This document shows positions 37,218 to 59,141 of a DNA stretch of 64,000 bases, piece after piece. The notes below the pieces were generated by a model. It had not been told where the DNA came from. It saw only the letters and a list, made by a program, of their open reading frames with translations, and ran no database searches. The first letter of the stretch is position 1; every line of letters starts with the position of its first letter. Made by a program: the position numbers and the translations under genes. The DNA is from a virus. Taxonomy: Duplodnaviria; Caudoviricetes. The DNA is taken from positions 49,448 through 113,447 of IMG/VR virus record IMGVR_UViG_3300001517_000002, one strand, 5' to 3'.

Positions 37218-37394
37218 ATGACAAACAGATTTGAGCCAAGAAAAAGAACTGCACTTGATGGAAAAGTGTGGTGGTGCGTATATGACAATCAGAACAATTG
37301 TTATTCTACATATATTTGTCACGGCAAATATAAGACTAAACGAAAGTGCATTGAAACTATTGACTTTTGGAATAAAAAATATTTTTCTAAATAA
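37218..37394 (+). CDS. hypothetical protein (below ORF-track cutoff)
   Basis: GGAGG RBS; MTNRFEPRK... Confidence 0.6.
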   Translation: MTNRFEPRKRTALDGKVWWCVYDNQNNCYSTYICHGKYKTKRKCIETIDFWNKKYFSK

Positions 37395-37478
37395 AAGGGT
37401 GATTTAAAAGCCAGACGGGGAGCTTACAATCTCCGTCACCATAGACAATAAAACCAAAAGGAGGTAAAGGAGGAAATT

Positions 37479-37682
37479 ATGAAGGTAATGAATCATATGG
37501 ATTATGAATGTACGCAGCCAAACAAAATTGATTGTGAAGCCTACATCCATTTTATGTGTAATCCAGACAACTCATACAATTGCAATGAATGTCCTGAACG
37601 TGAATCTGGATGTGATGACGGATTGCCTTGTGGTCAACAGCATTGTTGGGTAGATATACATTGTAAGGAGGAAAAGTTATGA
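37479..37682 (+). CDS. Cys-rich small protein
   Basis: CNECPE...LPCGQQHCW; RBS. Confidence 0.7.
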   Translation: MKVMNHMDYECTQPNKIDCEAYIHFMCNPDNSYNCNECPERESGCDDGLPCGQQHCWVDIHCKEEKL

Positions 37683-38054
37683 AAAAATTTATTATTAAAA
37701 TTGAAGTTAATAATAACATTACATTAGAGGATGTGGAATCAGCTATCTCTGAAATGATAAACAATTATCTTGATACAACAAATGGCTTTTATGAAATTAC
37801 AGATACAGAAATTGGCGATGAGGATGAATTGAACTTAATAAAAGAGTGATTTAAGAGAGGGATTTGATATGATAGGTAGATTAATTCTTGGAATTTTTTT
37901 CTTTGCATTAGCTATTTTCGAGATAAGATTAGCTAATAAACGTAAAGAACAAGATATTTTACAGCTATTATTCTTGATATTGTGTCATGGATTTTGTTGC
38001 GGATTATTAATCAGCAGGTTTCTGACAGATATAATTAATTAGGAGGAAATTTAA

Positions 38055-38249
38055 ATGAAAAAGAGAATTGCGTTTGCATATGTTACAATTATAATGGATT
38101 TTGCAACACAGGGAGATGCGAAAGAATATAAACATAAGAACATTGCAAAGCATTGGAGATTTTCGGAAATAAGATATACAGGTGACAGCGAATATCCTTA
38201 TTCAATGGAAATTACAAAGCCATATGGCAAATACCCCACTGGATATTAA
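38055..38249 (+). CDS. hypothetical protein
   Basis: GGAGG RBS. Confidence 0.7.
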   Translation: MKKRIAFAYVTIIMDFATQGDAKEYKHKNIAKHWRFSEIRYTGDSEYPYSMEITKPYGKYPTGY

Positions 38250-38265
38250 TTAGGAGGAACAAGAA

Positions 38266-38580
38266 ATGTATATCAAATATGTAATTGAGAAATACGGAGA
38301 GCAATACAATTGGAATAAAAGAAAAAGCCCACCAACACAGGATGATTTGTATGGGAATTATTATGCAAGTGATATTTCAACAGTAGATACAATTGGAATA
38401 TTTGACACGGAAGAAGAAGCAAAACAGCATATGCCGACAGAGGTGGTTATTGATACGGAAAAATACAATAGCTACAACGATACAAGAACAATATGGTACG
38501 ATGTTTATGCCTTGTTTGCAGTCGAATTTGACGGAGGAGATGAACTTAACAGGGAAGAAATAGACGTTGTGATAGCTTAA
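38266..38580 (+). CDS. hypothetical protein
   Basis: GGAGG RBS. Confidence 0.75.
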   Translation: MYIKYVIEKYGEQYNWNKRKSPPTQDDLYGNYYASDISTVDTIGIFDTEEEAKQHMPTEVVIDTEKYNSYNDTRTIWYDVYALFAVEFDGGDELNREEIDVVIA

Positions 38581-38613
38581 AGGTTTGTATGAGGAAAAAT
38601 AAGGAGGTCAATC

Positions 38614-38901
38614 ATGTATCAAAAGTATATCGGAAATCCCAGCGAAGCAATAGGGAAAACCCTTTATGTAAAACTGCCATCAGGCTATGTAGCTGGAAAA
38701 GTTGTGGAATATATTTATCCTAAATACGGAATAGTTGGAACGTATAAGGTTAAAAGAGCAGACGGAAAAACAATGAGCGCACAGACTCTTTATTGTCCAC
38801 AGGTTTATATCGACTGCTTTAGAACAATGGATTATCACGACTTTGAAAAATTCCCTTGTGAGAATTGTCCATTCAATAAGAAATGCGGAAGTTATAGGTA
38901 G
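38614..38901 (+). CDS. hypothetical protein
   Basis: AAGGAGGT RBS. Confidence 0.75.
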   Translation: MYQKYIGNPSEAIGKTLYVKLPSGYVAGKVVEYIYPKYGIVGTYKVKRADGKTMSAQTLYCPQVYIDCFRTMDYHDFEKFPCENCPFNKKCGSYR

Positions 38902-38911
38902 GAGGTCAATT

Positions 38912-39091
38912 ATGACAGTCAGAGAGTTACTTGATGATTTTCAGCTATTTAAAGGGAAAATTTATGTATATCAAGGAGAGTTCGGGGATAATCTTGAATT
39001 TGATGCAGATGACGATGAGGAAAATTTATCAAATGCAGAAGTGGTTGAGTATGAACTTAACTATGGCACACTATACATAGAAATAAAATAA
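38912..39091 (+). CDS. small acidic protein
   Basis: AGGAGGT RBS before ATG 38912. Confidence 0.7.
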   Translation: MTVRELLDDFQLFKGKIYVYQGEFGDNLEFDADDDEENLSNAEVVEYELNYGTLYIEIK

Positions 39092-39111
39092 TACTTTGAG
39101 GAGGATTAATT

Positions 39112-39318
39112 ATGACGGTTAAGGAATTTTTCGCAAATCTGAATCGTATAGTTGCCGATTATAACGTAGGTATGAGGGACATATCAAGCAATACGGAACA
39201 TCATAATAGTGTTAATACGCTTATGGAAAATGAAGATTTATACAACGATTGGAAAAACGCAACGATATGGTCGTGGTGCGTTATAGACAATAAGTTTGTA
39301 TTGACTGTACAGAAATGA
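39112..39318 (+). CDS. hypothetical protein
   Basis: GGAGG RBS. Confidence 0.7.
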   Translation: MTVKEFFANLNRIVADYNVGMRDISSNTEHHNSVNTLMENEDLYNDWKNATIWSWCVIDNKFVLTVQK

Positions 39319-39495
39319 GGAGGAAGATTAAATGAAACTTGATGAACTTATAAAAGGACTTACAGAAATACAGGAACAGTATGGAAATCTTACTGTTGAG
39401 ATTGTGAGAGAGGGAGTTCACCTTCCTGAGATTGAACCATACATTGACGGAAACTTTCTTTACTTAGAAGCCTATGAAGAAGGAGAGGGATTAGT

Positions 39496-39786
39496 ATGAA
39501 AACACTTGAACAGTTGTTTAAAGATAACAGAAATGATTTTGTGGAACTAATGAGAGAGTTTGAAGATAGTTATACACCTAAAACTTCATGGGAAAATATG
39601 ACCGACAACGCACTGGAAGAATTTAAAGGTTACTGTGAAGATGAAGCAAGTGGTTTTTTAAAGAATAGCTATGAGAGTGGTGCTAATAGTTCTGATTATG
39701 TTTTGAATGAATTTGACAGTATGCTTTGGACATATGCTCAGTGCATACAGCAGTTCGATATAATACAGGGAGGTTGCTTTATATGA
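39496..39786 (+). CDS. acidic hypothetical protein
   Basis: RBS, coupled. Confidence 0.7.
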   Translation: MKTLEQLFKDNRNDFVELMREFEDSYTPKTSWENMTDNALEEFKGYCEDEASGFLKNSYESGANSSDYVLNEFDSMLWTYAQCIQQFDIIQGGCFI

Positions 39787-40289
39787 ATATCAAAAACCGT
39801 GAACAGATAATTGAACAGCTTACGGAAATGCTGATACAGTTTGACAAGGACATGAACAAGTATCAGACAGATGTATACCTTTATTACAATAAGGAAACTC
39901 AGACAGCAGAGCTTGATACCTTCGTAAATGTGGGTGGAAATTCTTGGCTTGACGATGACCACTCTACAATCTATACCGACAAGGAACATAATGAAACTGT
40001 GTGGAACTGGTTCAATAATTCTACAGAAATCGCAGATGTATTGGAATATCCCACATATACAGAGTTCGATTATGATGTAAGACAAGCCCTTGAAATTGAA
40101 GCAGATGAGGATATTGCGTGGGAAGATTATATAGTTTACATCAAGTCAAATGATGATTATATGGAAAAGATATACGCAGCCTACAAGGAATACATTGACG
40201 AATTGCGTTCTGAGTATGCAGAAAAAGCAGAAATGATAATGAAGCAGTTTGAAGATGAAATGACAATTAAGGAGGGAACTGCAGTATGA
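39783..40289 (+). CDS. acidic hypothetical protein
   Basis: ATGA overlap with the upstream gene. Confidence 0.75.
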   Translation: MNIKNREQIIEQLTEMLIQFDKDMNKYQTDVYLYYNKETQTAELDTFVNVGGNSWLDDDHSTIYTDKEHNETVWNWFNNSTEIADVLEYPTYTEFDYDVRQALEIEADEDIAWEDYIVYIKSNDDYMEKIYAAYKEYIDELRSEYAEKAEMIMKQFEDEMTIKEGTAV

Positions 40290-40486
40290 AAACAACTTGT
40301 GTTCTTGGAGCTAACAGTAAAGAGGGTCTGGAAAACATGATAAATAATTATTTCTACTCGGAAAATTATATTATCACAGACGATAATAGAGTATACAACC
40401 GTAAGACTATGAAATATCTTGACGGGTATATTGTACAGGAGAGGAAATTAAGATGGAGTTTTAGGAGAATTGAAAAAGAAAATTGA
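40286..40486 (+). CDS. hypothetical protein
   Basis: ATGA overlap; RBS. Confidence 0.7.
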   Translation: MKTTCVLGANSKEGLENMINNYFYSENYIITDDNRVYNRKTMKYLDGYIVQERKLRWSFRRIEKEN

Positions 40487-40573
40487 GCATAGCTAATTGC
40501 CTATAATGGTGACAGCTTATAGGTAAATACATATGCTTAACGAAATCCAAACATAAATAAGGAGGAAATTTAT

Positions 40574-40930
40574 ATGCTAAGATATGATATTATGTATGCT
40601 TGTCTTGGTAATGGAATTACCGTATGTAACAGAGCGCAAACGGAAAATGGTGATTATAAAATTATAGCACACATTTCCAATGGTGGAAATATTGAATATC
40701 GAGTAAACAAGGACAAGCTTCCAGCGTATGCAATTAAAGGCATTGAGAATATGGCTGATGCTGAAAAGAAAAAATTTAGGGAAAATTTTATTAAGCTCCC
40801 CAGACTTAGACAGTATGAAATAATGCTTGACTCACTTCCTTGGTCACGCATACGTCTAAGGTTTAAAGGAGCGTATAACAATGAAGAACTTTGGAAAGAA
40901 CTCTTAAATGAGTATTTTGAAATTGCATAA
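40574..40930 (+). CDS. hypothetical protein
   Basis: CLGNGITVCNR...DYKIIAHI; RBS. Confidence 0.75.
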   Translation: MLRYDIMYACLGNGITVCNRAQTENGDYKIIAHISNGGNIEYRVNKDKLPAYAIKGIENMADAEKKKFRENFIKLPRLRQYEIMLDSLPWSRIRLRFKGAYNNEELWKELLNEYFEIA

Positions 40931-40938
40931 GGAGAAAG

Positions 40939-41205
40939 ATGATGACAGTACAGAAGAACTTGTTAAATAGAAAAACTCCTGCAAGAATTAATTATCCACA
41001 AGTTATCCGTAATGACGGAGCAGTATTTGAAGTATGCGGAAGTGATTATTACGGTTGGGAAATTCTTGTGATTTATGAATGGGGTTCAGACAATGTGTTC
41101 TTGATTGATGGAGAACGCAAAGGGATGCCACCACCAAAGTTTAAGACAAAAATACAGGCGGTCAAATACATGATAGAAAACGCAGACAAATTTACGTTTA
41201 TGTAA
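40939..41205 (+). CDS. hypothetical protein
   Basis: AAGGAG RBS. Confidence 0.7.
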   Translation: MMTVQKNLLNRKTPARINYPQVIRNDGAVFEVCGSDYYGWEILVIYEWGSDNVFLIDGERKGMPPPKFKTKIQAVKYMIENADKFTFM

Positions 41206-41239
41206 TTATAGAAAAAAAATGGATGTGGGAGGAAAAAAT

Positions 41240-41503
41240 ATGAGAAATAAATATCCAGAATGTTGCTATAGTCATGACATATATAATAACTGTACTATTA
41301 TTAAATGGGGAGAGTCGGGTTATTATAGAACTGATTTCCCGTCAGGACAGTATGATGACAGTATTGTAAATGAGCTTAATAAAAATAGTGGCGTTACACC
41401 CCAGATGCGTAGAGCAATGGAAATATGTTCTATGGCTTCGCAGAACAATCCTAATTTAAATTGGGAGAATCATTATGATATGATTATGAGGAGGCTGAAA
41501 TGA
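41240..41503 (+). CDS. hypothetical protein
   Basis: IIKWGESGYY motif; RBS. Confidence 0.7.
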   Translation: MRNKYPECCYSHDIYNNCTIIKWGESGYYRTDFPSGQYDDSIVNELNKNSGVTPQMRRAMEICSMASQNNPNLNWENHYDMIMRRLK

Positions 41504-41823
41504 AAAAGTTAATTAAGGAAATTAATGAATGTACGACCCTCTATCGTGATGATACAACAGGTATTGCTTGGATAGAGGATGGTTCAACTGGAATGGGAAT
41601 ATCAATACACCCTAACATATCCAACACAGGCTCAGTCAGAGGAATGAAAGACAGAGGATATTGGGGAAGAAAAGACCGCACGATTAGAAGTCACGGATGG
41701 ATTTATAACATTGATAGACTTGTAGTCGATAATAATAATCCATTGGAAAAATTATTAGCTAATACAGAATGTAAGTGTCAGGCTTGCATTGAACGTAGGG
41801 AGGACATATATGAAAGAAGATGA
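41500..41823 (+). CDS. hypothetical protein
   Basis: HPNISNTGSVRGMK; ATGA overlap. Confidence 0.75.
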   Translation: MKKLIKEINECTTLYRDDTTGIAWIEDGSTGMGISIHPNISNTGSVRGMKDRGYWGRKDRTIRSHGWIYNIDRLVVDNNNPLEKLLANTECKCQACIERREDIYERR

Positions 41824-41995
41824 CCTTTATTTTAAGAACGGAAAAATGAAGAAAAAATATATGATGTGTGAGAGCAAGGAATATCTCACAGAAATTAAAA
41901 ACGCTAACGGATATAAAAACATAGACGAGATTAATAAATCTTGGGTATGTGCTGGAAATCGTTGTCCTTATTATAGTATGGGCTGCAAGAAATAA
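41810..41995 (+). CDS. hypothetical protein
   Basis: GGAGG RBS. Confidence 0.65.
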   Translation: MKEDDLYFKNGKMKKKYMMCESKEYLTEIKNANGYKNIDEINKSWVCAGNRCPYYSMGCKK

Positions 41996-42006
41996 GGAGG
42001 AAGGTT

Positions 42007-42273
42007 ATGGAAAACAAAGTATTTACAACAGGCAACAGTGGTTATTTGGGTACTGAATATAGGTTGTATATAGACGGAAACAAAATTGAAACAAGGTATG
42101 ACAACAGCGGCGATAATTACAGAAATCTTATGTATGATAATTATGTACACGGCTATACAACTGCACAAGTACGCAAGGCACAAAAGGAATACGATTATTG
42201 GAAGGAACAATTGGAAGAAATGAAAAATGCTCCTATTGTAGAAGATGATGAAGAATTTTTAGGAGAGTTATAA
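42007..42273 (+). CDS. hypothetical protein
   Basis: GGAGG RBS. Confidence 0.7.
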   Translation: MENKVFTTGNSGYLGTEYRLYIDGNKIETRYDNSGDNYRNLMYDNYVHGYTTAQVRKAQKEYDYWKEQLEEMKNAPIVEDDEEFLGEL

Positions 42274-42290
42274 TAAGGAGGAATTTTAAA

Positions 42291-42683
42291 ATGACATTGT
42301 ATGATTTTATCCGCATGGAAGATACAGACTTTGACACATATGACACGGTATTTGATGCCGAGGTCACTGTATGTGTGCCTTATGATGATTCGGAAATAAC
42401 AGAATGGTATGACAAGTTTTATAACTTCATTATCAAACACGTTGAGTTTAAGGAAAAGATTTCAGAAGGTGAGTGTACCGCTGAATGGACAAACTTCATT
42501 ACTGATAATCTGGAAATATTCAGAGAGGCAGCTAATGATATGTGGTACGATGACCGTGTTCCTGACGATGACGATGACCTTATCTATGAATGGATTAAGG
42601 AAATACATAGTTGGCTTGCAGGATATGTAAGTGAAGTTGAATACCAGAAGTTTATGGAAAAGTATGCACCCAAAATTAAGTAA
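42291..42683 (+). CDS. acidic hypothetical protein
   Basis: GGAGG RBS. Confidence 0.75.
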   Translation: MTLYDFIRMEDTDFDTYDTVFDAEVTVCVPYDDSEITEWYDKFYNFIIKHVEFKEKISEGECTAEWTNFITDNLEIFREAANDMWYDDRVPDDDDDLIYEWIKEIHSWLAGYVSEVEYQKFMEKYAPKIK

Positions 42684-42696
42684 AGGAGAGAATGAT

Positions 42697-43203
42697 ATGT
42701 TAAAAAAGAATATAAAAATTATTAAAGGAACATTAAGACCAGAAAAGGAAAAACTTGCAAAGGTTGTTTATCATGGTGGGTTCTATTATGCCTGTGATGA
42801 TTTCAGAATGGTGCGTTTTGAAGAACTTCCCGATGAACTCCCTTTGTTTGAGGACAACGAGCCACGTTTCGATGTGGAATTTGGTGTGCTTAGAGCTGCG
42901 GAACAAACATACAGAGAGTTTGTAGTGCCATATCCGATTGAGGTATTGAAGAAGTGGAGGACTGGTAAAAGGAAAGAACCATATAGACTTGGAATAAGCG
43001 GAAAAACCTCTTATGGTTCTGAGCATTGGTTTGGAATTAATATTAATTTCCTTATTGATGCTATCGAAACAACAGGTTCTTATGTGATTAAAGTCCCTGA
43101 GAGATATACGGCTATGGTAATGGAAGGTAATGGATTCACTTGGATGATTATGCCAATCGATGTTAAGGACGGTAAGGATAAGGGCGAAACTATTATAGTA
43201 TAA
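42697..43203 (+). CDS. hypothetical protein, weak similarity to a beta-clamp fragment
   Basis: ACDDFRM, GININFLIDAI, MIMPI. Confidence 0.5.
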   Translation: MLKKNIKIIKGTLRPEKEKLAKVVYHGGFYYACDDFRMVRFEELPDELPLFEDNEPRFDVEFGVLRAAEQTYREFVVPYPIEVLKKWRTGKRKEPYRLGISGKTSYGSEHWFGININFLIDAIETTGSYVIKVPERYTAMVMEGNGFTWMIMPIDVKDGKDKGETIIV

Positions 43204-43477: not shown

Positions 43478-43491
43478 GAAGGGGATATAAT

Positions 43492-43883: not shown

Positions 43884-44429
43884 ATGAAAAAAATAATATC
43901 AATTATAATTTCAGCAGCAAGTATTATTACAATCAGTCCCATGTCTGCAAGGGCAGTCAATGGATTTAGACCTAATGGGAGACTCAAGCTTGACATTAAT
44001 GCGGATGAGTATATCAACGCCGTTGATGCGTCTATTGTCCTTTCTGAATATGCTAAATCCGCAACAGGTGAGGGCGAGTTCACAAGGACAGAAAAATTTG
44101 TAGCTGATTTCAACGATGACGGAAAAATTGATGCAGTTGATGCTTCTGGAATCCTTGCAGTATATGCTCAGAATAGTAGTAGGGATTGCAAGGAATATCC
44201 TATTACAACATTGGAATTTTATAGTATGATAAAAGTTGGTCATGACTGGATTGCTTGTGGTAACTCTTTCCTTTCTTACGAAGAAGCAATGATTGCTCTT
44301 GAATGTGGTAAAGAGAACCTTGAAGAAAAACGTCAGACTTATTCTGAGTGTAACATTCAGATGGTGTCAACAATCATGACAGACTTACCGCAGACAGAAA
44401 TCAAGTATGTATATAGAGAAGTAAAATAA
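43884..44429 (+). CDS. secreted type I dockerin-domain protein
   Basis: Signal peptide ending ARA; duplicated Ca-binding loops DINADEYINAVDAS and DFNDDGKIDAVDAS. Confidence 0.88.
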   Translation: MKKIISIIISAASIITISPMSARAVNGFRPNGRLKLDINADEYINAVDASIVLSEYAKSATGEGEFTRTEKFVADFNDDGKIDAVDASGILAVYAQNSSRDCKEYPITTLEFYSMIKVGHDWIACGNSFLSYEEAMIALECGKENLEEKRQTYSECNIQMVSTIMTDLPQTEIKYVYREVK

Positions 44430-44443: not shown

Positions 44444-45403
44444 ATGTCAGCCAATCTTAATAACCAGAAGTTATGTAATGTTATTGACATATCAAGGCGA
44501 GAATATGATTTTAATGCTTTCATTCCAAGTTCCCATGACAGTTTGTCAGAACAAGAACTTACAGAAATTGAACGAGTAGAAGCTGCGCAGAGAGCTGGTC
44601 AAGGAGATGACGAGTTACCTGTTGGGATATTTAATGACCTTCTAAAATATTTTTTAGATAACCATGATTATCGAAGTGCATTATGGATAACTTTGCAAGC
44701 TAACACTGGATTAAGATATGTTGACATAAGTAAATTTAGGAAGATAGAACTTATAAATGAGAACAATTTATTCCGTGAGTCGATACTTGATAGCGAACAG
44801 AAAACAGGTAAAAAAAGAATTAACTTTATTAATGATGCTATTAAAATGGCGACATTATTATATTTGTGGGACAACCCAGAAATTAAATTACTCGACTATC
44901 TTATTGTTGCTGATAAGAACGCACCCAACAGAGGCTATAAGAAAGAAACGTACATTGATAGTAGAGGAAATAAAAGGGTAAAAAGAGAGAATGGCAAATA
45001 TGTTTATGTTCTCGATTCCAATGGAAATAAAATTATTGAACCACTTTCAATACAATGCGCAAATGAAATTATAAAAAAGGCTCTTGTTGATGGTCTGGGA
45101 ATAGCAATAAGAAATAGTCAGGGGAAAGATGGTTATTTAAAAATAGCTACTCATTCCCTTAGAAAAACATATGCAGGGGCAGTAGTAGACTATTATACAA
45201 GACAGTTTGACACAAACAAAGAGTATGCTCATGCTGCTGCAATGGAACAGCTACAATATGACTTAAATCATAGTAGTCGAAAAATGACATATCACTATAT
45301 CGGTGATTATGTTGAAACTAAACGCTCAATAAATATGAGCATGAATTTAGGGATAGATGTACTCAAACCAGTTTTTGATGTAGAAAAGGAAAAGAGGAAG
45401 TAA
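44444..45403 (+). CDS. tyrosine recombinase
   Basis: TGLRYVD (R), KTGK, HSLRK (HxxR), LNHSS...TYHY (H, Y): catalytic residues intact. Confidence 0.92.
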   Translation: MSANLNNQKLCNVIDISRREYDFNAFIPSSHDSLSEQELTEIERVEAAQRAGQGDDELPVGIFNDLLKYFLDNHDYRSALWITLQANTGLRYVDISKFRKIELINENNLFRESILDSEQKTGKKRINFINDAIKMATLLYLWDNPEIKLLDYLIVADKNAPNRGYKKETYIDSRGNKRVKRENGKYVYVLDSNGNKIIEPLSIQCANEIIKKALVDGLGIAIRNSQGKDGYLKIATHSLRKTYAGAVVDYYTRQFDTNKEYAHAAAMEQLQYDLNHSSRKMTYHYIGDYVETKRSINMSMNLGIDVLKPVFDVEKEKRK

Positions 45404-47076: not shown

Positions 47077-47151
47077 TAGGGTATAGCAAAGAGGTAATGC
47101 AACGGGCTTTGACCCCGTAATTCGCCAGTTCAAATCTGGCTGCCCTAACCA
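47077..47151 (+). tRNA. tRNA-Gln(TTG)
   Basis: ACGGG-CT TTG AC-CCCGT; CCA. Confidence 0.88.
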
Positions 47152-47304
47152 TCGTTCCAACAGGTTAAAAGGAAGCCAAAAGCAATGAGCCTGACATCAA
47201 GCTTCGGGGCGAGGCATACGTTCTATAGGGGATAATGTGACAGTGCAAACTCCAATATATGCTTAATGACTCACTGTATGACGGCTCGGAAAGACGAGCA
47301 TAAC

Positions 47305-47364
47305 GACTCACTTGATAATAGACCTCCTCGTGGTGTGAGTTGGGTAACGCTAAGATATTATCAA
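47305..47364 (+). ncRNA. minimal HDV-like (theta-type) ribozyme
   Basis: P1 GACTCAC/GTGAGTT, P2 TTGATAATA/TATTATCAA, P3 ACC/GGT, L3 TCCTCGT, GG, GCTAA with the catalytic C. Confidence 0.85.
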
Positions 47365-47415
47365 ATTTCTTTTACTATTCTTTTTCTGATTGCGGTGAGA
47401 AATCACCGCACAAAT

Positions 47416-47490
47416 GGGAGTGTAGCTCAGTGGTAGAGCAATTGCCTTTTAAGCAATAGGTCGAGGGTTCGATGCCCTTCACTCTCACCA
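47416..47490 (+). tRNA. tRNA-Lys(TTT)
   Basis: ATTGC-CT TTT AA-GCAAT; CCA. Confidence 0.93.
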
Positions 47491-47495
47491 ATTAT

Positions 47496-47581
47496 CTGGA
47501 CGTAGCTCAGTTGGGAGAGCACTACAATAGTTTATGATAGAAATGTAGAGGTCGCTTGTTCAAGCCAAGCCGTTCAGACCA
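47496..47581 (+). tRNA. tRNA-like RNA with a 17-nt anticodon loop (identity undetermined)
   Basis: Acceptor, D and T arms and CCA intact; CTACA-[17 nt]-TGTAG. Confidence 0.75.
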
Positions 47582-47814
47582 AGGGGTTAACCCCCTCATC
47601 AATATATACCATAGATACAAACAACTCTGGCTTCCTCTGAGATGAAGGTTGAAACAATAATGGCGTGGTCGCTTCTTTAGAGATGATATGGCTCAGAAGT
47701 CCTTTGCTTCAGCATAAAAGACCTTAACTAAATGACAATGATATATTGGCGCATTGGGGTTGTGATGATAATAAAGGAGGGAAAACATCACATAGTTTGT
47801 ATCAAAATAAAAAT

Positions 47815-47900
47815 GCTCCTGTGGTGGAACTGGCAGACGCAAGGGACTTAAAATCCCTCGGGTGAAACCCGTATCGGTTCGAGTCCGATTAGGAGCACCA
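47815..47900 (+). tRNA. tRNA-Leu(TAA)
   Basis: AGGGA-CT TAA AA-TCCCT; long variable arm; CCA. Confidence 0.93.
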
Positions 47901-48107
47901 ATACTTCAAAAGCGGTGTGGCAACATTATTTAAATAAGGGAAACGATGGGTATACGAAACTTATTTGGTAATGATAAAATGGATAAAATGTAAAGCCATC
48001 AAATCGTTCTTGACTATGGGCAAACCTGTAGAAGTAGCTACCTACGGAAACCAGCAAAAAGAACACAAATCTTGCATAAGTTACACGCTCTTATGCAAGC
48101 AAATCAT

Positions 48108-48184
48108 CTGGATTTAACTCAGTTTGGTAGAGTGCTTGCTTTGGGAGCAAGATGCCGCAGGTTCGAGTCCTGTAATCCAGACCA
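48108..48184 (+). tRNA. tRNA-Pro(TGG)
   Basis: CTTGC-TT TGG GA-GCAAG; CCA. Confidence 0.92.
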
Positions 48185-48389
48185 ATTGGATTAAGAAGAT
48201 GCAATATCAAATGAATAGGAATGTATATCGTGGTGGAGGTAGACTGTGGTTTACGCAAAGGACGAGAATTATTTAATTCAATATTTGATAGAGGTGGTTG
48301 CATTGCCTCCGCTTAATCCATTACCAAAATCTTCGTTATGTCTTTGGCATAACTGACCTCCTTCAGCCCGTAGTTGCTACGGGCAATAT

Positions 48390-48465
48390 GGGACAGTAGC
48401 AGAATTGGCATATGCGGTAGTCTCAAAAACTACGTCATTTATGGGTTCGACTCCCATCTGTCCCA
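48390..48465 (+). tRNA. tRNA-Leu(CAA), short variable region, no encoded CCA
   Basis: GTAGT-CT CAA AA-ACTAC; GGGACAG/CTGTCCC acceptor stem. Confidence 0.8.
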
Positions 48466-48605
48466 CTACTACATTTTTATAGGAGGAATAACCAAATGAA
48501 TAAATGCGTTTGTTGCGGAGCTATAATTCCAGAAGGAACTTTGGTCTGCTTTATTTGTTTGCATAAAAATAATTTTTATAAAATCAATTATAGGAGGTAA
48601 TCTTA

Positions 48606-49103
48606 ATGACCAACAATGAAAAGATTCAAAAAGCAGAACAGCTTATCGCAGAAGCTAATGCACTTCTTAATGAAGTTAAATCTACCTATGATAATAAGAA
48701 AGATGTGATTGCTAAGTATAAAGAAGATTATTGTAAAGGTAAGAAATATTATATTAATGATGATAGTAATACCAGTTGGATTGTCACTCCTAATGCGTAT
48801 ACATTTAAAAACACTTCAAATCCTTATAAATTTTATCTTACAGAAGAACTTGCTGAACAGGCAAAGAAACTGAAAGACTTCAATGATAAACTGCTGGCTT
48901 TTAAATATTGTTATGATTTAGATTATAAGCCCAGTTGGGATAACGATTGTCAAAAGTATTATATTTATTATAGTACAGTTGATAACGAATACCACGCTGA
49001 CGGTTTATCTTCTATGCGTGAACCATTAGTTTATTTTAGCACCAAGGAAATCGCACAGAAATGTGCAGACTGGCTTAATTCATTTAAGGAGGTTGAAAGT
49101 TAA
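48606..49103 (+). CDS. hypothetical protein
   Basis: AGGAGGT RBS; VYFSTKEIAQKC. Confidence 0.8.
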   Translation: MTNNEKIQKAEQLIAEANALLNEVKSTYDNKKDVIAKYKEDYCKGKKYYINDDSNTSWIVTPNAYTFKNTSNPYKFYLTEELAEQAKKLKDFNDKLLAFKYCYDLDYKPSWDNDCQKYYIYYSTVDNEYHADGLSSMREPLVYFSTKEIAQKCADWLNSFKEVES

Positions 49104-49107
49104 TCTG

Positions 49108-50205
49108 GTGGCAAACAGAGCGTATAAATTTAGGCTATATCCTAATGAAGAACAAAAGATATTATTTGCCAAAACCTTTGGTTGTGTTAGATTTATCTAC
49201 AATCAAATGCTTTCGGATAAGATAGCACATTATAAAGAAACTGGAACGAAGCTCAACAATACTCCTGCTCAATACAAGAAAGAATTTGAGTGGCTTAAAG
49301 AAGTTGACAGCCTTGCTCTCGCAAACGCACAAATGAATTTACAGACCGCTTATAACAATTTCTTCAGGACACCAAAAGTTGGATTTCCTAAATTCAAGAG
49401 TAAAAAGAGAGACAGGGATAGTTATACTACAAACAATCAAAATGGTACAGTAAGTATTATTGAGAAGAAATTAAGGTTGCCAAAGGTTGGTCTTGTAAAA
49501 ATGGTGCAACACAGAATAATTTCAGACAACGAAAAGATTAAGTCTGCTACAATTACAAGAACACCATCGGGCAAATATTATGTTTCTATTCTTGTGGAAT
49601 ATGATAAGGTTGTTCCCAATGTAGAATTATCAAGGGATAAGGCGATAGGATTAGATTATGCAAGTCATAGCTTTTATGTCGATAGTCAAGGCAGAGAAGC
49701 AGATTATCCCAAATTCTATCGTAAAGCACAAGCTAAACTGGCTCACGAACAGCGCAAACTTGCTAATATGAAGTATGGTAGTAATAACTACTACAAACAG
49801 AAGATTAGGGTTGCGAGAGTTCACGAAAAGGTTGCAAATCAGCGTTTGGATTGGATTCATAAACTCAGTACACAATTAGCAAATGAATACGATATAGTTT
49901 GTGTGGAAGATATAAATATGCAAAATATGGCGAGGTCATTAAAATTAGGAAAGTCAACTAATGACAATGGCTTTGGAATGTTCAGAGATATTCTTTCCTA
50001 CAAACTCACTGACAGAGGAAAAGCATTTGTAAAGATTGATAAGTGGTTTCCGTCAAGCAAGATGTGTAGGCATTGTGGTTCTATCAACCACGAGCTTGCG
50101 CTATCAGACAGAGTTTGGACTTGCAGTTGCGGTACTACAATCAATCGAGATGAAAATGCTGCGATAAACATAATGAACGAAGGTTTGAGAATGTTATTCT
50201 CATAA
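49108..50205 (+). CDS. tnpB: IS200/IS605-family RNA-guided endonuclease TnpB
   Basis: AYKFRLYP HTH; RuvC D (GLDY), E (VEDI), D (RDENAA); CRHC/CSC zinc ribbon; probable GTG start at 49108. Confidence 0.93.
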   Translation: MANRAYKFRLYPNEEQKILFAKTFGCVRFIYNQMLSDKIAHYKETGTKLNNTPAQYKKEFEWLKEVDSLALANAQMNLQTAYNNFFRTPKVGFPKFKSKKRDRDSYTTNNQNGTVSIIEKKLRLPKVGLVKMVQHRIISDNEKIKSATITRTPSGKYYVSILVEYDKVVPNVELSRDKAIGLDYASHSFYVDSQGREADYPKFYRKAQAKLAHEQRKLANMKYGSNNYYKQKIRVARVHEKVANQRLDWIHKLSTQLANEYDIVCVEDINMQNMARSLKLGKSTNDNGFGMFRDILSYKLTDRGKAFVKIDKWFPSSKMCRHCGSINHELALSDRVWTCSCGTTINRDENAAINIMNEGLRMLFS

Positions 50206-50330
50206 TCGAATAGAAGAACCGTAAGGACTACGGGGATAGCTCGTTGATACTGGTAGCAATAGCTACCTTGGGCGAGAAGCCCGTTGACTTTAGACGATGG
50301 GTAGTTCGTGGAGGAAATATAAAATGATAT
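50206..50330 (+). ncRNA. TnpB omegaRNA scaffold / right end plus putative guide
   Basis: GGGGATAGC...GAAGCCC-hairpin-GGGTAGTTC, typical of IS605/IS1341-type right ends. Confidence 0.7.
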
Positions 50331-50356
50331 TTATTAAAATGAGGAGGAAATAAAAA

Positions 50357-53031: not shown

Positions 53032-53275
53032 TGTGAATAGTATAGTGACCGTATGAACAATGCGGTCACTATTAAAATTATTGGCACAAGGAAAAGAGGG
53101 AATATGTTTACTATAAGTGATATTGCAAAACTTACAGAGTTTGACTGTTATTGTTGCCTCCCTGTATTAAAATGTAATGACATTGGTAGTATGGAATGTA
53201 GGGCGGTGTTCTTTGCGAACATGGCTTGTATAATGATACTTAATAACGAGTATATGTAAAAGGAAGGTTGATATA

Positions 53276-54172
53276 ATGAATCATAAGAAGTTTATGGATA
53301 TTGAAAGAATCAAGGAAAACATTATAGGTGGATTTGAAGTAGGCAATCATATAGTTATACAGGAGAAGATTGATGGAGCTAATGCAGCTATCAGATATGA
53401 TAGTGAAACAAATACTGTCGTAGCTCAGAGCCGTAAAAATATACTTAATATATCAAACAACCTTAGAGGGTTTTATGAATGGACACAGACACTTAATGCA
53501 GATAAAGTAAGAGAGGTTCTTGGAGATAATCTTATATTGTTTGGAGAATGGCTTGTGCCACATAGCGTTAAATATCCCAATGATAAATATAATCATGCTT
53601 ATTTTTATGATATTTATGATACAGCAACAGAATCTTATCTCGCACAGAATATTGTAAAAGAGAAGGTTGATGCTCTTAGTCTTATTTATGTTCCAGTTTT
53701 TTATGATGGACTGTTTGAATCTTGGGAGCATTGTTATTCATTTGTAGGCAAGACTAAAATGGGTGGCGAATATGGAGAAGGCATTGTAATAAAGAATCAA
53801 ACAAAGCTGAATGACCCCAACTCTCGTACTCCATACTATATTAAAATTGTTGGTGAAAAATTTCAAGAAACTCACGAGCATCATAAAAAGGAAGTTTCAC
53901 CAGAACAAATAAAGGCACTTGAAGAAAATAAAATCCTGTGCGAAACTATTGTTACAGAAGCGAGAGTAACTAAGATACTTCACAAGCTGGTCGATGAAGG
54001 TATTCTTCCTGAGAATTGGGGTGCATCTGAAATGCCAATCGTAGCAAGAAATCTTTGTAAAAGAGTATTTGAGGATTGTCAGAAAGAAGAACCAGAAACA
54101 ACAGCTAAGATTGAAAACTTTGGTAAGGTTGCGAACTCAATTTGTATGAGCATTGCAAGAAAGCTCATATGA
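53276..54172 (+). CDS. RNA ligase (Rnl2-like nucleotidyltransferase)
   Basis: EKIDGAN, FGEW, FYDI, EGIVIK, IK motifs. Confidence 0.85.
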   Translation: MNHKKFMDIERIKENIIGGFEVGNHIVIQEKIDGANAAIRYDSETNTVVAQSRKNILNISNNLRGFYEWTQTLNADKVREVLGDNLILFGEWLVPHSVKYPNDKYNHAYFYDIYDTATESYLAQNIVKEKVDALSLIYVPVFYDGLFESWEHCYSFVGKTKMGGEYGEGIVIKNQTKLNDPNSRTPYYIKIVGEKFQETHEHHKKEVSPEQIKALEENKILCETIVTEARVTKILHKLVDEGILPENWGASEMPIVARNLCKRVFEDCQKEEPETTAKIENFGKVANSICMSIARKLI

Positions 54173-54732
54173 AACGTCTATCCAATTTAATGCTCTTAGC
54201 TAATTTTCTATCCACCTTATTTTATTCCGTATCATATCCATACATTTATGCCGAGACAATTAAGGTAGTCCCACATTCATATATAGGAATTGAACAGATA
54301 CTTGCTTGCCTCGGCACAATTGTATTTTGTAGGTTATGGAACAAACATAGTGATAGATTATTTGAGCATTATAGATTATTCTTGTGTGCTGAAATTATAG
54401 CAGATGTCATTCTTTTTTCCGATGTATTGATAAGAAATGATTTAAGTTTTTATTTTCTTTTGAACATCATTATCTTCTCAGTGATTACAAAGAATCTGTG
54501 TTGTGCAAGTACCAAAATGAGAGCTAAGGTAAATCCTACTGAGAAAGAGCGTGAGCAATATGATAACAATTCAAGCATAGTTAATTCTATTGCTACATTA
54601 ATCGGTGCTGGTACTGCGATAGTATTTGATTTCGATTTACGATTACTGTTTATACTTGCTTTCGTGGGAAATGCAATTGATAACATATTCTATTTATATA
54701 TTTACAAAAAGATAAGGAGCGAGAATAAATGA
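54169..54732 (+). CDS. multi-pass membrane protein
   Basis: About six hydrophobic segments; ATGA overlap. Confidence 0.7.
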   Translation: MKRLSNLMLLANFLSTLFYSVSYPYIYAETIKVVPHSYIGIEQILACLGTIVFCRLWNKHSDRLFEHYRLFLCAEIIADVILFSDVLIRNDLSFYFLLNIIIFSVITKNLCCASTKMRAKVNPTEKEREQYDNNSSIVNSIATLIGAGTAIVFDFDLRLLFILAFVGNAIDNIFYLYIYKKIRSENK

Positions 54733-55037
54733 GTATAACAAGCTGTCCAATTTGTGGTACTCACGACTTAAATTGCACTCACTACTTTGAAGATGGAATT
54801 GGTGTAGTTGAGGAATACATTGATTGCAAACATTGCAACTATTCATTTGAATACGTCTATGGTGCTTATCGAGAATCATTTGGTAGGTATGAGTTTCATT
54901 GGGGTTATTCAATATTCAACAAAGACAATGGTGAGATACACAAGTTCTTTATGCCGATATACAAAGCTAAATTTATGGAGCGTAGAAAGTGGCATAAGGG
55001 TTTGAGAAAATGGCTCAAAAAGAGTGAGGTGACTTAA
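54729..55037 (+). CDS. zinc-ribbon protein
   Basis: CPIC...CKHC. Confidence 0.7.
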   Translation: MSITSCPICGTHDLNCTHYFEDGIGVVEEYIDCKHCNYSFEYVYGAYRESFGRYEFHWGYSIFNKDNGEIHKFFMPIYKAKFMERRKWHKGLRKWLKKSEVT

Positions 55038-55408
55038 TGTTTATTACAGCGACTAATGACAAAGCCAGCATACTATCAGGGATTATAAACTGTATAGGAA
55101 GTTCAGATGCAAAGGTAACTATGGTAATAGCCCCTAAAAGACCTATTGCAGATATTCTTTATATTACAAAAGAAATTCTTTATTTACTTGAAGATACTCA
55201 GGATTGTGATTATAAAATCTTGATTAATAATAGTTATTTTTGTGTCAAGTTTGAAAATGGTAGTGTGTTTGAAGTGAAGCGTTGGACGGGGAGCATCAGA
55301 GGGAAAGCAGCTCATATGGTTATTGTTGATGATGGTATTCCAAAAGAAGATAGAACAATGTTACTTGATTATTGTAATGCAATAGATAGGAGTTTAAATA
55401 ATGAGTGA
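55037..55408 (+). CDS. hypothetical protein
   Basis: Coupled; IRGKAAHMVIVDD resembles a helicase/terminase fragment. Confidence 0.65.
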   Translation: MFITATNDKASILSGIINCIGSSDAKVTMVIAPKRPIADILYITKEILYLLEDTQDCDYKILINNSYFCVKFENGSVFEVKRWTGSIRGKAAHMVIVDDGIPKEDRTMLLDYCNAIDRSLNNE

Positions 55409-55781
55409 GTATTGCCACAGAAAAGCTGTCAGATTTAAGATTGACGAAAAATTAGCTTGTGAACTTTTAAATGTTGAAGATAGCTGGGGTATGGAGGATT
55501 TGGTTAAAGCTCCATTTGAAATTGCTCCAACCAAAGAATTTTTCATTGACTATAATTTGCCTTGTAGTAACGATGCAGAAGGTGATTGGGGCAAGGTAAG
55601 AATTTTGTCCACATCTGAATATAGCAAATACGAAAAGTTGTTTAATGAATTGTTTGGTTATCAGCTAAGATGTTATCCTGATGATTTTAGACTTGTCGAA
55701 TACTGTTGGTATGATAATAGTGAAGCACCAGATTATTTTGATGAGACAACTTACCATGATGATTTTTATGACGAGGTGTGA
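55401..55781 (+). CDS. hypothetical protein
   Basis: Coupled ORF. Confidence 0.7.
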   Translation: MSEYCHRKAVRFKIDEKLACELLNVEDSWGMEDLVKAPFEIAPTKEFFIDYNLPCSNDAEGDWGKVRILSTSEYSKYEKLFNELFGYQLRCYPDDFRLVEYCWYDNSEAPDYFDETTYHDDFYDEV

Positions 55782-55792
55782 GGTAGCAAGAA

Positions 55793-56290
55793 ATGAATAG
55801 AGGTAATCTTTATAGAGCAATGGACGAAATATTATTCAGAGCTAAAGCCATAAACCGTGACTGCAAATATGGTTATTCTCCAAACAGACGTAGTGACTAT
55901 AAGAACGGTGATTGGGTATACGGTCTTATAACAAAACCATATAACGAACGCTTTCCAAAACTTCCTGCTGAAATGAGAAATACCGATGGAATTAGTGGGA
56001 TTGAAGTTGACTATAAGACAATAGGAATGTGGACAGGTAAACTTGATTGCGAAGAAAATTATATATTTGAGAACGACATTCTTCAAGATATTGATACAGG
56101 GGAATATGTAGTTGTTCAATGGTTTCCAGAACATTCTTCCTTTATGGTTTGGCGAATAACTATCAATAAGATAGAGTTCCTGTACTCTTTTCTTGATTCC
56201 AAATACAAAAAGTTAAAAGTCGTAGGTAACATATATGACGGTCAGAATTTAATAGATAAAGCAATGGGGGAGTTTGATTATGAATCGTGA
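55793..56290 (+). CDS. YopX-family protein
   Basis: ILFRAK, WVYG, TIGMWTG, IFENDIL, VVGNIYD. Confidence 0.85.
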   Translation: MNRGNLYRAMDEILFRAKAINRDCKYGYSPNRRSDYKNGDWVYGLITKPYNERFPKLPAEMRNTDGISGIEVDYKTIGMWTGKLDCEENYIFENDILQDIDTGEYVVVQWFPEHSSFMVWRITINKIEFLYSFLDSKYKKLKVVGNIYDGQNLIDKAMGEFDYES

Positions 56291-56612
56291 ACCAGTTCCC
56301 ATTGACGAGATTGATGGCTATGTTACCAAGGATTCTATGTATAGGTTAATATCTCAATACAAACGTGAAGGTCGCATTTCACCAGCAACGGCACAGGATA
56401 TGTGTAATACAATTGCTTATTCAATTGGGGTTGAAAGAACCAAAGACAGATGGATATGGGATGCTATGTGTCTGTTCAAAACCATACAAGGTTGGTTTAC
56501 AGAAAACAAAATATCATTCACTATGCTTTTAAGGGAAATTGATAATAAAAATATAGAGTATTTAAATAATGAGATAGATAATCTTTATGAAAAATATAAG
56601 GGGATAACATAA
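56280..56612 (+). CDS. hypothetical protein
   Basis: Coupled ORF. Confidence 0.7.
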   Translation: MNREPVPIDEIDGYVTKDSMYRLISQYKREGRISPATAQDMCNTIAYSIGVERTKDRWIWDAMCLFKTIQGWFTENKISFTMLLREIDNKNIEYLNNEIDNLYEKYKGIT

Positions 56613-56956
56613 TGAGTATTATACAAGATATACCAGAGTTGCGTAAACTTATAATAGAGAACCCTGAGCTACCTATATGTGTACTTGTAGAGAACGACTT
56701 ACCTTGGGAAGAATACTCTTATACCTATGCTGCTTCTGTTAAAGTTTATATAGGTGAGATTCTTGACTGTGATGTCCCATATAGTGACGGATATGTTTTT
56801 AATGATAGAGATGATTTAGGAGAACATTTACAATGCCATTTAGACATAGACGATAGTGTTTCAGATGAAGAATTTGAAAAGCTGGTTGATAAAGAAGTCG
56901 AGAAGTATGAACCCTACTGGAAGAAGGTTATTGTTGTGAGGGCTGAGAGTCAATGA
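56612..56956 (+). CDS. hypothetical protein
   Basis: LIIENPELPI; TAATG overlap. Confidence 0.75.
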   Translation: MSIIQDIPELRKLIIENPELPICVLVENDLPWEEYSYTYAASVKVYIGEILDCDVPYSDGYVFNDRDDLGEHLQCHLDIDDSVSDEEFEKLVDKEVEKYEPYWKKVIVVRAESQ

Positions 56957-57089
56957 AGATAAGAGAAAAGATTGATAATATACTTAATACGATTCAGTTA
57001 TACAGTTATAAGTTACCTACTTGTAAAATAGGCAATGCTATAATGGACTTTAGAGAAAGGTTTACATTGCCAAGAGAGAGGTGATATAA

Positions 57090-57353
57090 TTGGATAAATT
57101 AAGTGGCGATTACATTCGTGGATTCACGGCTGGACTTCAAAAAGTCCAAGAGATAATGCAATACATAGAATCTGATATGAAATTTCATAAGCGAAGAATG
57201 AATACAAAATCTCTTATGGAGATTTTAAATTGCGCAATTAAAGACAGAGAAAAATTAAGAGAAAATCCAGAGGCGTTTGTGCGTTGTACAAACGATGGGG
57301 GATTTGAAGTGTACGAGCCAATGAGGAGGGTAAAACCAAATGATTGCAGCTAA
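57090..57353 (+). CDS. hypothetical protein
   Basis: GAGGTG RBS, TTG start. Confidence 0.7.
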   Translation: MDKLSGDYIRGFTAGLQKVQEIMQYIESDMKFHKRRMNTKSLMEILNCAIKDREKLRENPEAFVRCTNDGGFEVYEPMRRVKPNDCS

Positions 57354-57552
57354 GTGCATAAATATTAACACAAGTGGTTGGAATACATACCCAGAGTTAA
57401 AATTAGGCGAAACTTATGAGGTAGAATACGCTGATGTGGGCGGCTACTATACAAGTGTTTATCTTAAAGGTTTTAAGAAAGGGTTTAATTCTGTTTGCTT
57501 TGAGTTTTATAAAGATGGCGAGAAAATAAATATTGTTTCCGAATTTATGTGA
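57340..57552 (+). CDS. hypothetical protein
   Basis: GGAGG RBS. Confidence 0.7.
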   Translation: MIAAKCININTSGWNTYPELKLGETYEVEYADVGGYYTSVYLKGFKKGFNSVCFEFYKDGEKINIVSEFM

Positions 57553-57585
57553 ATAGGAATCTTGTTTTATTAAGGTGGTGATATA

Positions 57586-58080
57586 ATGTTTAACATGAAT
57601 GAACCAGCAATAACTATTACTATGACAGAGAAATGGGTATGGGATTGTCCTAATACTAAAGCTGCTTTTTATGAAGCCAAACATAATACACAAACCACTA
57701 TTAATGACAGGGTAAACTGGTGTATGGCTAAGATTAAGCAGTTGGAGTTGTCAGATATATTAGACCCGTGGGACTTGGAACGATATGCTACCGAGATGAA
57801 ATATTTATAAACTACCGTTTCAGATTGTATGTTGAGTTTCTTCGACGATTTAGAAGCTTTCATTGATATGAAACTTGATACCGAGCCTAACAAGCAAATG
57901 GCAGTACAATGGACAGGAGATAAATTTATACAAGGACTATTCTACAATATTTTTGAGAAGCTAAATTTAGATTATAGTTTGGACTCTGTAAGAAATATTA
58001 TGTTTATAAAGCCAAGATTTCATAAGATAAGAGTTTTTGATAGAAAGACAAATTTCTTTGCAAATGCAATGAAAGAATAA
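57586..58080 (+). pseudogene. single gene split by an in-frame TAA
   Basis: ORFs 57586-57810 and 57829-58080 share a frame; no RBS before 57829. Confidence 0.6.
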
Positions 58081-58100
58081 TTCTATGAGAGGTAATACAA

Positions 58101-58271
58101 ATGACTGATTTTGAAAAATTCAAGAAGTTTTTTGACAGTATAGGGATTGAATACGAAGTCAACGGAGATTGCCTATATTTGAAAAATTTCGCAGTACGGG
58201 GCGGTCAATTGATTGTTGTGGATTTTTATGAGGACGGGAAGTTCCAATGTTTTAGTCCTTATCCATCATAA
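58101..58271 (+). CDS. hypothetical protein (below ORF-track cutoff)
   Basis: GAGGT RBS; MTDFEKFKKFF. Confidence 0.6.
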   Translation: MTDFEKFKKFFDSIGIEYEVNGDCLYLKNFAVRGGQLIVVDFYEDGKFQCFSPYPS

Positions 58272-58286
58272 TTAAGGAGGAACAAT

Positions 58287-58607
58287 ATGTTAAATTTAAA
58301 AGTTGGCGATAAGGTGCTTATGCGAAACACATGGCGCACAGAAATTGGAGTTGTTGATAAGATAACCCCTACTGGTTTAATTAAAGTTGGTGGTTATACA
58401 TTTAGACCTGATGGGCGTGAACGAGGTGGAGATAGTTACCATCCGTGGGACATCGAACCACTTACACCTGAATTAGAAGTTGAATTTTATAAAAAGCGGT
58501 TTATATCTAAGGTTGCTAATGGAGCAAGCGATTATGATTTTAGAAATATGTCCTATGATATTGCAAAGGCTTTGAATGAATTATTGAACTTACAAATAAA
58601 AGAATGA
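58287..58607 (+). CDS. hypothetical protein (SH3/KOW-like)
   Basis: LKVGDKV...VDKITPTGLIKV. Confidence 0.75.
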   Translation: MLNLKVGDKVLMRNTWRTEIGVVDKITPTGLIKVGGYTFRPDGRERGGDSYHPWDIEPLTPELEVEFYKKRFISKVANGASDYDFRNMSYDIAKALNELLNLQIKE

Positions 58608-58631
58608 TGTTTTATTAAGGAGGAAATTATA

Positions 58632-59084
58632 ATGTTAAAAAATCTTGATATTATATCAATCATGCCATCAGGAATAATGGCTATGTTAGCAGAAACAATA
58701 CATAAGGTAGATATCACAAATTTTGATTCCATGTTTAGCAATTACGAAACTGGAGTGTATAGACATGACGGATTTAAGTTTAATTTCGATTGCTTCATCG
58801 AAGAAAACTGTCTCAATCGTATAAAGGATAAGTGGGTGGCATACGGAGTTTGTGATAATTACAAACAGATACTTGAATATCATAAAGAACTTCTAAATAA
58901 CACAAATAAAAATTATGTTATCGGGCTGTCCACTGTAAATCGCAAAGATGAACCCGAAGATGGCGGTTGGAGATGGAGTGGATGGGGTAATTATATAGGG
59001 ATTCAAAGCCCTCAGCATGAATACATATATAATGATACGCATATAGATACAGTCTATTGTTATCACATATATGAAATCGAATAA
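58632..59084 (+). CDS. hypothetical protein
   Basis: YGVCDN, GGWRWSGWGNYIG. Confidence 0.8.
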   Translation: MLKNLDIISIMPSGIMAMLAETIHKVDITNFDSMFSNYETGVYRHDGFKFNFDCFIEENCLNRIKDKWVAYGVCDNYKQILEYHKELLNNTNKNYVIGLSTVNRKDEPEDGGWRWSGWGNYIGIQSPQHEYIYNDTHIDTVYCYHIYEIE

Positions 59085-59141
59085 AAGAATAATTCCATTG
59101 GTAAAACGACAACGTAGAATAGCCAAAAACGAGGTGTTAAA

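Follow-up and report, generated by a model that had tools for sequence, protein, structure and literature searches.

Here we describe a short sequence element repeated at gene junctions in the last 64 kb (the window) of a 113,447-bp virus record, IMGVR_UViG_3300001517_000002, which IMG/VR classes as having direct terminal repeats. The window has a G+C content of 35%, and from about 26.5 kb to its end it holds an array of ~90 mostly small genes, on the + strand throughout, within which the junction sites lie. At these sites we observe a 14-nt core motif, AATAAAAGARTRAT, that is biased in strand and position, recurs in relatives, is portable between genes and forms repeats with insertion/deletion (indel) breakpoints inside them. 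We favour, with a probability of roughly 0.6, the view that the sites are copies of a portable junction/leader module serving as a short homology patch for modular gene shuffling. The module would consist of the core, one of four short leader subtypes and a Shine-Dalgarno (SD) sequence, and would sit ahead of a subset of small accessory genes in co-oriented, hypervariable arrays. An earlier note on this DNA had read the same places as 18-bp quasi-palindromes, with two six-base arms around a six-base centre (6-6-6), and had suggested that a recombinase encoded at 44444 excises and inserts gene cassettes there in the manner of an integron.

The six 18-mers quoted in that note are present exactly at 37391, 37838, 58069, 59081, 57553 and 58598, and they do sit at gene junctions overlapping stop codons. 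Its two main variants are in fact a single coding-strand motif, the 14-nt core, seen in another register. Our core scan covered the window and 82 fetched loci (given L numbers below). At one mismatch or fewer, the 113-kb genome has five copies where 1.3 ± 1.1 would be expected, each of them on the + strand and at a junction. The window copies and their associated elements are as follows (ORF, open reading frame).

37390 to 37403, + strand: core copy with one mismatch and an 'a'-type right flank; its TAA ends ORF 37218-37394.
37414 to 37437, + strand: conserved stem-loop with an 8-bp stem and an 8-nt loop, GCTTACAA, followed by a conserved ACCATAGACAATAA tract.
37837 to 37850, + strand: exact core copy; ORF 37679-37849 ends ...LIKE-stop, and the ATG lies 32 nt from the core start.
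57557 to 57575, + strand: diverged 'c'-type leader sharing TGTTTTATTAAGG with 58608-58620; the core is not conserved.
58068 to 58081, + strand: core copy with one mismatch and a 'b'-type flank; ORF 57829-58080 ends ...AMKE-stop, and the ATG lies 33 nt from the core start.
58595 to 58631, + strand: exact core copy with a 'c'-type leader and SD; ORF 58287-58607 ends ...QIKE-stop.
59080 to 59136, + strand: exact core copy with a 'd'-type leader that is common with L074.

The related phages, located through a conserved 677-aa protein and a GmrSD-like protein, offer an independent count. In 60 kb of their sequence the core occurs eight times on the coding strand and never on the other, where 0.85 ± 0.89 copies were expected and the maximum in 200 shuffles was four; six of these eight copies occupy junctions that are not orthologous to those of the window. 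When the 13 copies are aligned, conservation starts sharply at the first A of the core, preceded by coding sequences that are unrelated to one another. Downstream, the right half of the motif is not conserved among the copies; each core is followed there by one of the four leader subtypes and then by the SD. The distance from the core start to the start codon is 32-37 nt in 9 of the 13. At 37390 it is 89 nt to the next ATG because the stem-loop element intervenes. The window has a single copy of that stem-loop, for which there is no Rfam match; it is also found at an unrelated junction in the metagenome contig L077 (572-620), where its changes are a compensatory G-C to T-A replacement and a G.T pair turned into G-C.

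The core also carries two stop codons, a TAA at positions 3-5 and a TRA at positions 11-13. Six unrelated ORFs from the window, L077 and L003 run into it and terminate ...(I/M)KE-stop at the TRA, and further ORFs stop at the TAA; in L002 the upstream ORF stops just before the core. An ORF that becomes joined upstream would thus read into these two stop codons and terminate there, often as ...IKE-stop. Descent of the upstream genes from a common ancestor was considered as the source of the ...IKE tails and rejected for the window proteins, since those that end in the core show no significant similarity to one another. At 37823-37851 and 58573-58608 the likeness extends to about ten C-terminal codons (...ELNLIKE and ...ELLNLQIKE) in otherwise unrelated genes. 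These tails, which belong to ORFs 37679-37849 and 58287-58607, lie upstream of the core and differ by two in-frame indels of 3 nt; the module that was transferred here apparently brought the 3' tail of an ORF with it.

Leaders and genes are combined differently from phage to phage. The 'c'-type leader stands ahead of three different genes, encoding 150 aa in the window, 106 aa in L073 and 57 aa in L002, and an exact search for it in viral contigs returned just the two contigs already known. The 'd'-type leader is present in both the window and L074, and the genes downstream of it differ. The same leaders before different genes indicate that linkers and genes reassort independently. The site quoted at 57553 belongs here in part: it shares the downstream TGTTTTATTAAGG leader and lacks a conserved core.

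These results have to be weighed against the possibility that the similarities arise by chance or composition, from AT-rich stop and SD contexts picked out by eye in a 35% G+C genome. Some of what the earlier note described does behave in this way. Every quoted site has an arm complementarity of 4/6, and the window has 3,074 sites with at least 4/6 in the 6-6-6 register, where first-order Markov simulations give 3,220 ± 63. Palindromy in this register is therefore at chance level, the term quasi-palindrome carries no information, and we rejected the 6-6-6 model. Taken as repeated families, the three variants likewise failed, each having two members (at most three mismatches), no more than in shuffles. 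The similarity within the three pairs is real, these being among 25 runs of at least 16/18 identity within 1.1 kb when 4.4 were expected; most of the other runs in the window, and so most of the excess, are SD + ATG strings. A further, 'weaker' site reported at 50319 has four mismatches to the 14-nt core by hand alignment, when matches with two or fewer mismatches are already at chance; it is not a copy and lies within the right end of a TnpB insertion. Chance does not readily explain the 8:0 strand split and the six non-orthologous junctions in independent relatives, the ...IKE-stop tails common to unrelated ORFs or the greater likeness of junctions that flank the same gene (p=1.6e-5, below). 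The count in the independent relatives largely refutes this explanation, and we regard it as quite improbable.

Comparison with close relatives suggests how the module might take part in gene exchange. L074 lacks exactly the 485-bp unit between the 58595 and 59080 copies, that is, the 150-aa gene and its leader, and its flanks overlap in an exact 11-nt direct repeat (58595-58605 and 59080-59090), so that both breaks lie in core copies. These are two of the sites in the earlier note, yet not a pairing that it proposed. L002 lacks a 1,134-bp, five-gene block (window 36720-37853). In its empty site the hairpin after the GmrSD-like gene is joined directly to the ribosome-binding site of gene 37869; the right break, between 37853 and 37854, is at the 3' edge of the 37837 copy, and the left break is not at 37391. 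In L077 the break coincides with the 3' edge of the core; of the two genes in the proposed 447-bp unit, the one for the 67-aa Cys-rich protein is present alone (homology over 37476-37664) and the second is absent. The 67-aa family itself (37479-37682, + strand) has eight Cys/His positions that vary little or not at all, an NCNEC motif among them, and 12 metagenome homologs at 65-96% identity; the protein is probably zinc-binding, to judge from these residues. No relative carrying genes 57586-57810 and 57829-58080, which adjoin the sites at 57553 and 58069, was found in viral contigs.

The expectation that gene gains and losses break in the quoted sites was thus borne out at both ends in L074 and at the right end in L002, while most breakpoints fall at other junctions. 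Likewise, the sites mark some indel edges as cassette boundaries would, without an inverted-arm core, and the 447-bp and 1,012-bp units that the earlier note predicted are not the ones seen to vary. In the ~26 gaps relative to L002 and L003, nearly all breaks are no more than a few bases from the start or stop of a gene, and most are at junctions with SD or start-codon microhomologies of 6-17 nt. The flanks of clean indels commonly overlap, and the overlapping strings are either a stop codon plus SD or a start codon plus the first codons. The flank overlaps and the units concerned are listed here.

39508/40283: indel flank overlap of 17 nt.
55823/56256: indel flank overlap of 12 nt.
42002/42274: indel flank overlap of 10 nt, in both relatives (L002 and L003).
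41819/41810: indel flank overlap of 10 nt.
Around TnpB: indel flank overlap of 6 nt.
41991 to 42283, + strand: single gene 42007-42273 with a 12-nt stop + SD direct repeat at 41991-42002 and 42272-42283.
39493 to 40294, + strand: unit deleted in L002, with a 12-nt direct repeat across the start codon at 39493-39504 and 40283-40294.
57079 to 61008, + strand: 3.9-kb multi-gene block with the same extended-SD string at both edges, 57079-57089 and 60998-61008.

Gene 42007-42273 is absent from L002 and L003, each of which retains one copy of the repeat. In place of 57079-61008, a block that includes all the 58-kb sites, L002 has 1.1 kb of other sequence, and its homology resumes exactly at the extended-SD copy at 60992. 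Such copies form a second family of junction linkers, a near-full-length anti-16S extended SD (AAAGGANGGTGATAYAAA + ATG) found at 59688-59717, 60598-60627, 60992-61012 and 61506-61526. The motif of the earlier note is one family among several junction strings. A further replacement is seen at the RNA ligase gene (53276-54172, + strand; Pfam RNA_ligase, 4.3e-24), in place of which L002 has ~1 kb and L003 and L004 have ~3.3 kb of unrelated sequence; the joints are at the start and stop codons.

The sharing of strings between junctions can also be measured over the whole array. An exact repeat of at least 10 nt links the two junctions flanking one gene in 10 of 90 cases (11%), and junctions at least ten genes apart in 63 of 3,321 pairs (1.9%; odds ratio 6.5, Fisher p=1.6e-5), the rate falling with separation through two and three genes. 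This pattern is the footprint that crossovers in junction strings would leave if they bring genes in and take them out.

Taken together, the data suggest the following course of events. Module copies would act as short homology patches, and recombination between them would insert, delete or swap single genes or small blocks. Other junction strings (stop + SD, extended SD, start codon + first codons) would do the same job. Exchange may occur between co-infecting relatives or between nearby copies within one genome, and it would leave direct repeats around the exchanged unit. We infer that the process is homologous or microhomology-mediated recombination and not the action of a site-specific enzyme; the variable 6-17 nt strings at other junctions fit homology-driven exchange better than such an enzyme.

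The recombinase invoked in the earlier note is nevertheless genuine.

44444 to 45403, + strand: divergent Xer-like tyrosine recombinase of 319 aa with a short N-terminal region, identified by catalytic residues and profile matches.

Tyrosine recombinases share R-K-H-R-H/W-Y residues in conserved boxes, and the protein has them as R91, K120, H237, R240, H276 and Y285, each unchanged in all eight of the closest homologs, which agrees with the claim that the gene is intact. It matches the PHROG integrase family at 8.8e-15 and scores 16.5 bits, under the cut-off, against Pfam Phage_integrase. As a single sequence it gave no PDB match and no NCBIfam model at E<=1, IntI included; a profile built from its homologs reached XerA (6.4e-6) and XerC-like proteins (2.6e-5), the nearest solved relatives. 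A bacterial-genome search with the single protein, made with a prophage-integrase role in mind, returned no relatives; alignments were too divergent for the search tool. By its residues and profiles, the enzyme is a genuine but divergent Xer-like recombinase rather than an integron integrase. Three related phage records carry homologs at 96%, 47% and 39% identity, and for such a conserved clade gene, co-occurrence with the motif is uninformative either way.

That this enzyme recombines core sites to excise and insert integron-like cassettes seems to us highly unlikely. The idea can draw on the complete catalytic residues, conserved in the clade together with the motif, on the one cassette-sized indel with both ends in core copies and on the stop codons that the core supplies, as some attC sites do. 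There is also a general likeness to integrons in the co-oriented single-gene units, the short 3' boundary element and the presence of a tyrosine recombinase in the same genome. However, sites such as lox, FRT, dif and attP cores have inverted arms around a 6-8 bp overlap, and here there are no inverted arms above chance and no dyad symmetry common to the four leader subtypes. An attC site marks the 3' end of each cassette with an imperfect inverted repeat, tens of nucleotides long, whose single strand folds, whereas folding of ten junction strands (five sites, both strands) was no better than in shuffles (z -1.40 to +0.72). The GTTRRRY core of integron sites is found by inspection in none of the 13 aligned copies, and no IntI-type integrase with its characteristic extra domain is present, the enzyme matching neither an integron-integrase nor any other NCBIfam model. 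The boundary strings here differ from junction to junction, and most indels use strings other than the core, with overlaps of varying length. There is no attI site or promoter beside the recombinase gene, and the array is not adjacent to it. One site cluster (37.4-37.9 kb) is ~6.6 kb from the gene and the other (57.5-59.1 kb) ~12.7 kb; five tRNAs, the TnpB element and many other genes intervene. An equally improbable variant is that the 14-nt core is a dedicated cassette-boundary signal for a phage enzyme, for example this clade-conserved divergent recombinase; if true, it would represent phage-borne mobilisation of single-gene cassettes that is mechanistically unlike integrons, with neither hairpin nor dyad.

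Alternatively, the core may be purely a signal for regulation or expression that takes no part in recombination, with joints lying near it since all joints are at junctions. It might belong to a promoter specific to the phage, act as an asymmetric, stoperator-like operator, mark a site of RNA processing or form a leader for translation. The strand specificity of the core and its regular distance to the ATG would suit such a role, as would the fact that most indel breakpoints are at junctions without a core. In L073 the core and its 'c'-type leader come just downstream of a non-coding, tRNA-like spacer, promoter-like on inspection, with no upstream gene, and could be the 5' end of a transcript. 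The phage also suggests active mRNA processing, with a beta-CASP/metallo-beta-lactamase protein that has an RNA-specificity domain (RNase J/CPSF-like; 16820-18241, - strand) and a match to the Rfam Twister-P5 ribozyme (28564-28624, + strand; 55.5 bits, gathering score 37.6) located between genes of the first + strand operon.

No high-scoring sigma-70-like promoter, terminator or structure coincides with the core; the only overlap is with a 9/12 promoter match at 37403-37430, and the frequency of promoter-like sites does not exceed that in shuffles. A promoter for a T7-type RNA polymerase was considered as some core copies continue ...TCTATAGGAGA; a search with PF00940 (phage RNA polymerase) gave no match in the genome, and control genomes likewise gave none. 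Stoperators, the repressor sites of cluster A mycobacteriophages, are 13 bp long and asymmetric, lie near stop codons and follow the orientation of transcription. The core resembles them as a short asymmetric motif in one orientation to transcription, at junctions beside stop codons; it differs in having far fewer copies and no sequence similarity, and no repressor is known here. A signal without any part in recombination also leaves the exact 11-nt repeat inside the two core copies that flank the L074 indel, and the independent reassortment of leader subtypes and genes between phages, to be explained otherwise. We consider this explanation unlikely in its exclusive form. It is compatible with the homology-patch reading as regards the primary function of the motif; the module's primary role is probably in gene expression, as a 5' leader, in translation initiation or in RNA processing.

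Several points weigh against the homology-patch reading. Each genome has just 5-6 core copies, and a single clean indel has both breakpoints inside them. In a genome so tightly packed, any gene-level joint falls near a junction, and co-location is accordingly weak evidence. The main weakness of the model is patch length, 10-17 nt being short for recombination of the RecA type; the phage yielded no homolog of RecT, ERF or RecA that might be named as the recombination enzyme. The core was defined post hoc from the window copies, and the count in relatives is its sole independent test. The core has a presumed role in expression, yet no sigma-70-like promoter or terminator coincides with it.

The exchange proposed here has counterparts in other phages. 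Tailed phages are mosaic, with gene-by-gene presence or absence and joints at gene boundaries, sometimes in short shared 'boundary' or linker sequences. In our case, many joints can be assigned to specific direct repeats of 6-17 nt made of stop, SD or start sequences, and one family has a 14-nt core from which the upstream ORF takes its stop codon. The closest precedent of the module is the promoter-early stem-loop (PeSL) elements, a class of mobile regulatory cassette found in T4-type phages (Arbiol et al. 2010, PMC2839356; Comeau et al. 2014, PMC4122927). Recombination between these repeated junction cassettes shuffles genes and forms mini-circles, and PeSL exchanges explain indels between close T4-type relatives (PMC2839356). 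As with PeSL, small non-essential genes in hypervariable regions have short conserved cassettes repeated at their junctions. The cassettes likewise contain breaks of the insertions, deletions and replacements that distinguish close relatives (L074, L002 and L077), most breakpoints being elsewhere. Exchange between nearby direct copies would release gene-sized circles of the sort predicted in the earlier note, in this case by homologous exchange. The differences are also clear. PeSL has a strong sigma-70-like promoter, which the core does not, and a terminator stem-loop, for which the module has no equivalent, the stem-loop at 37414-37437 being a separate element of the 37390 junction only. There are fewer copies here, built of a 14-nt core and an SD leader, and the carrier is not a T4-type phage but an uncultivated large low-G+C phage with direct terminal repeats by its IMG/VR class.

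If the homology-patch reading is true, this phage gives a clear example, outside the T4-type phages, of how a hypervariable array of small genes is rebuilt. The junction strings that every gene needs, namely the stop codon, the leader and the ribosome-binding site, would double as recombination linkers, and one linker family would give a stop codon and an ...IKE tail to whichever ORF lands upstream. In uncultivated phages this would help to interpret ORFan turnover and artefacts of annotation, shared C-terminal tails among them, and it shows those who search phages for integron-like systems what a false positive looks like. It reveals no new recombination mechanism, gene swapping by short-repeat recombination being a known style of phage evolution.

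The array has also received a transposon-related element.

49093 to 50341, + strand: TnpB-only insertion relative to L002, L003 and L004, from which it is absent, with a copy of AGGAGG on either side.

The element has OrfB_IS605, Cas12f1-like TNB and HTH domains and entered the conserved 677-aa gene downstream of its SD and upstream of its start codon; with AGGAGG at both edges, the downstream gene retains an SD. No TnpA was seen, and the 165-aa ORF just upstream of TnpB, a conserved phage gene, has no Pfam or PHROG match.

As for the wider genome, the - strand portion of the window encodes the terminase, the portal and an exonuclease. Megablast against cultured phages gave no match at the DNA level, the large 677-aa protein has ~58-60% identity to proteins of Clostridioides and Bacillus phages, and L002/L068 has 92-96% DNA identity to the window within common blocks. 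Seven tRNA genes are present, for Gln, Lys, Leu-UAA, Pro and Leu-CAA on the + strand (47077-48466) and for Glu and Asn on the - strand (14330-14835); in L002 the tRNA array has an additional 277 bp at 48433/48444, and further spacers differ. A protein with a GmrSD_N domain, the N-terminal domain of a type IV restriction-like system, is encoded at 35658-36668 (+ strand). Finally, a small protein encoded at 43884-44429 (+ strand) has a dockerin type I domain, which hints at a host among the cellulosome-bearing Clostridia.

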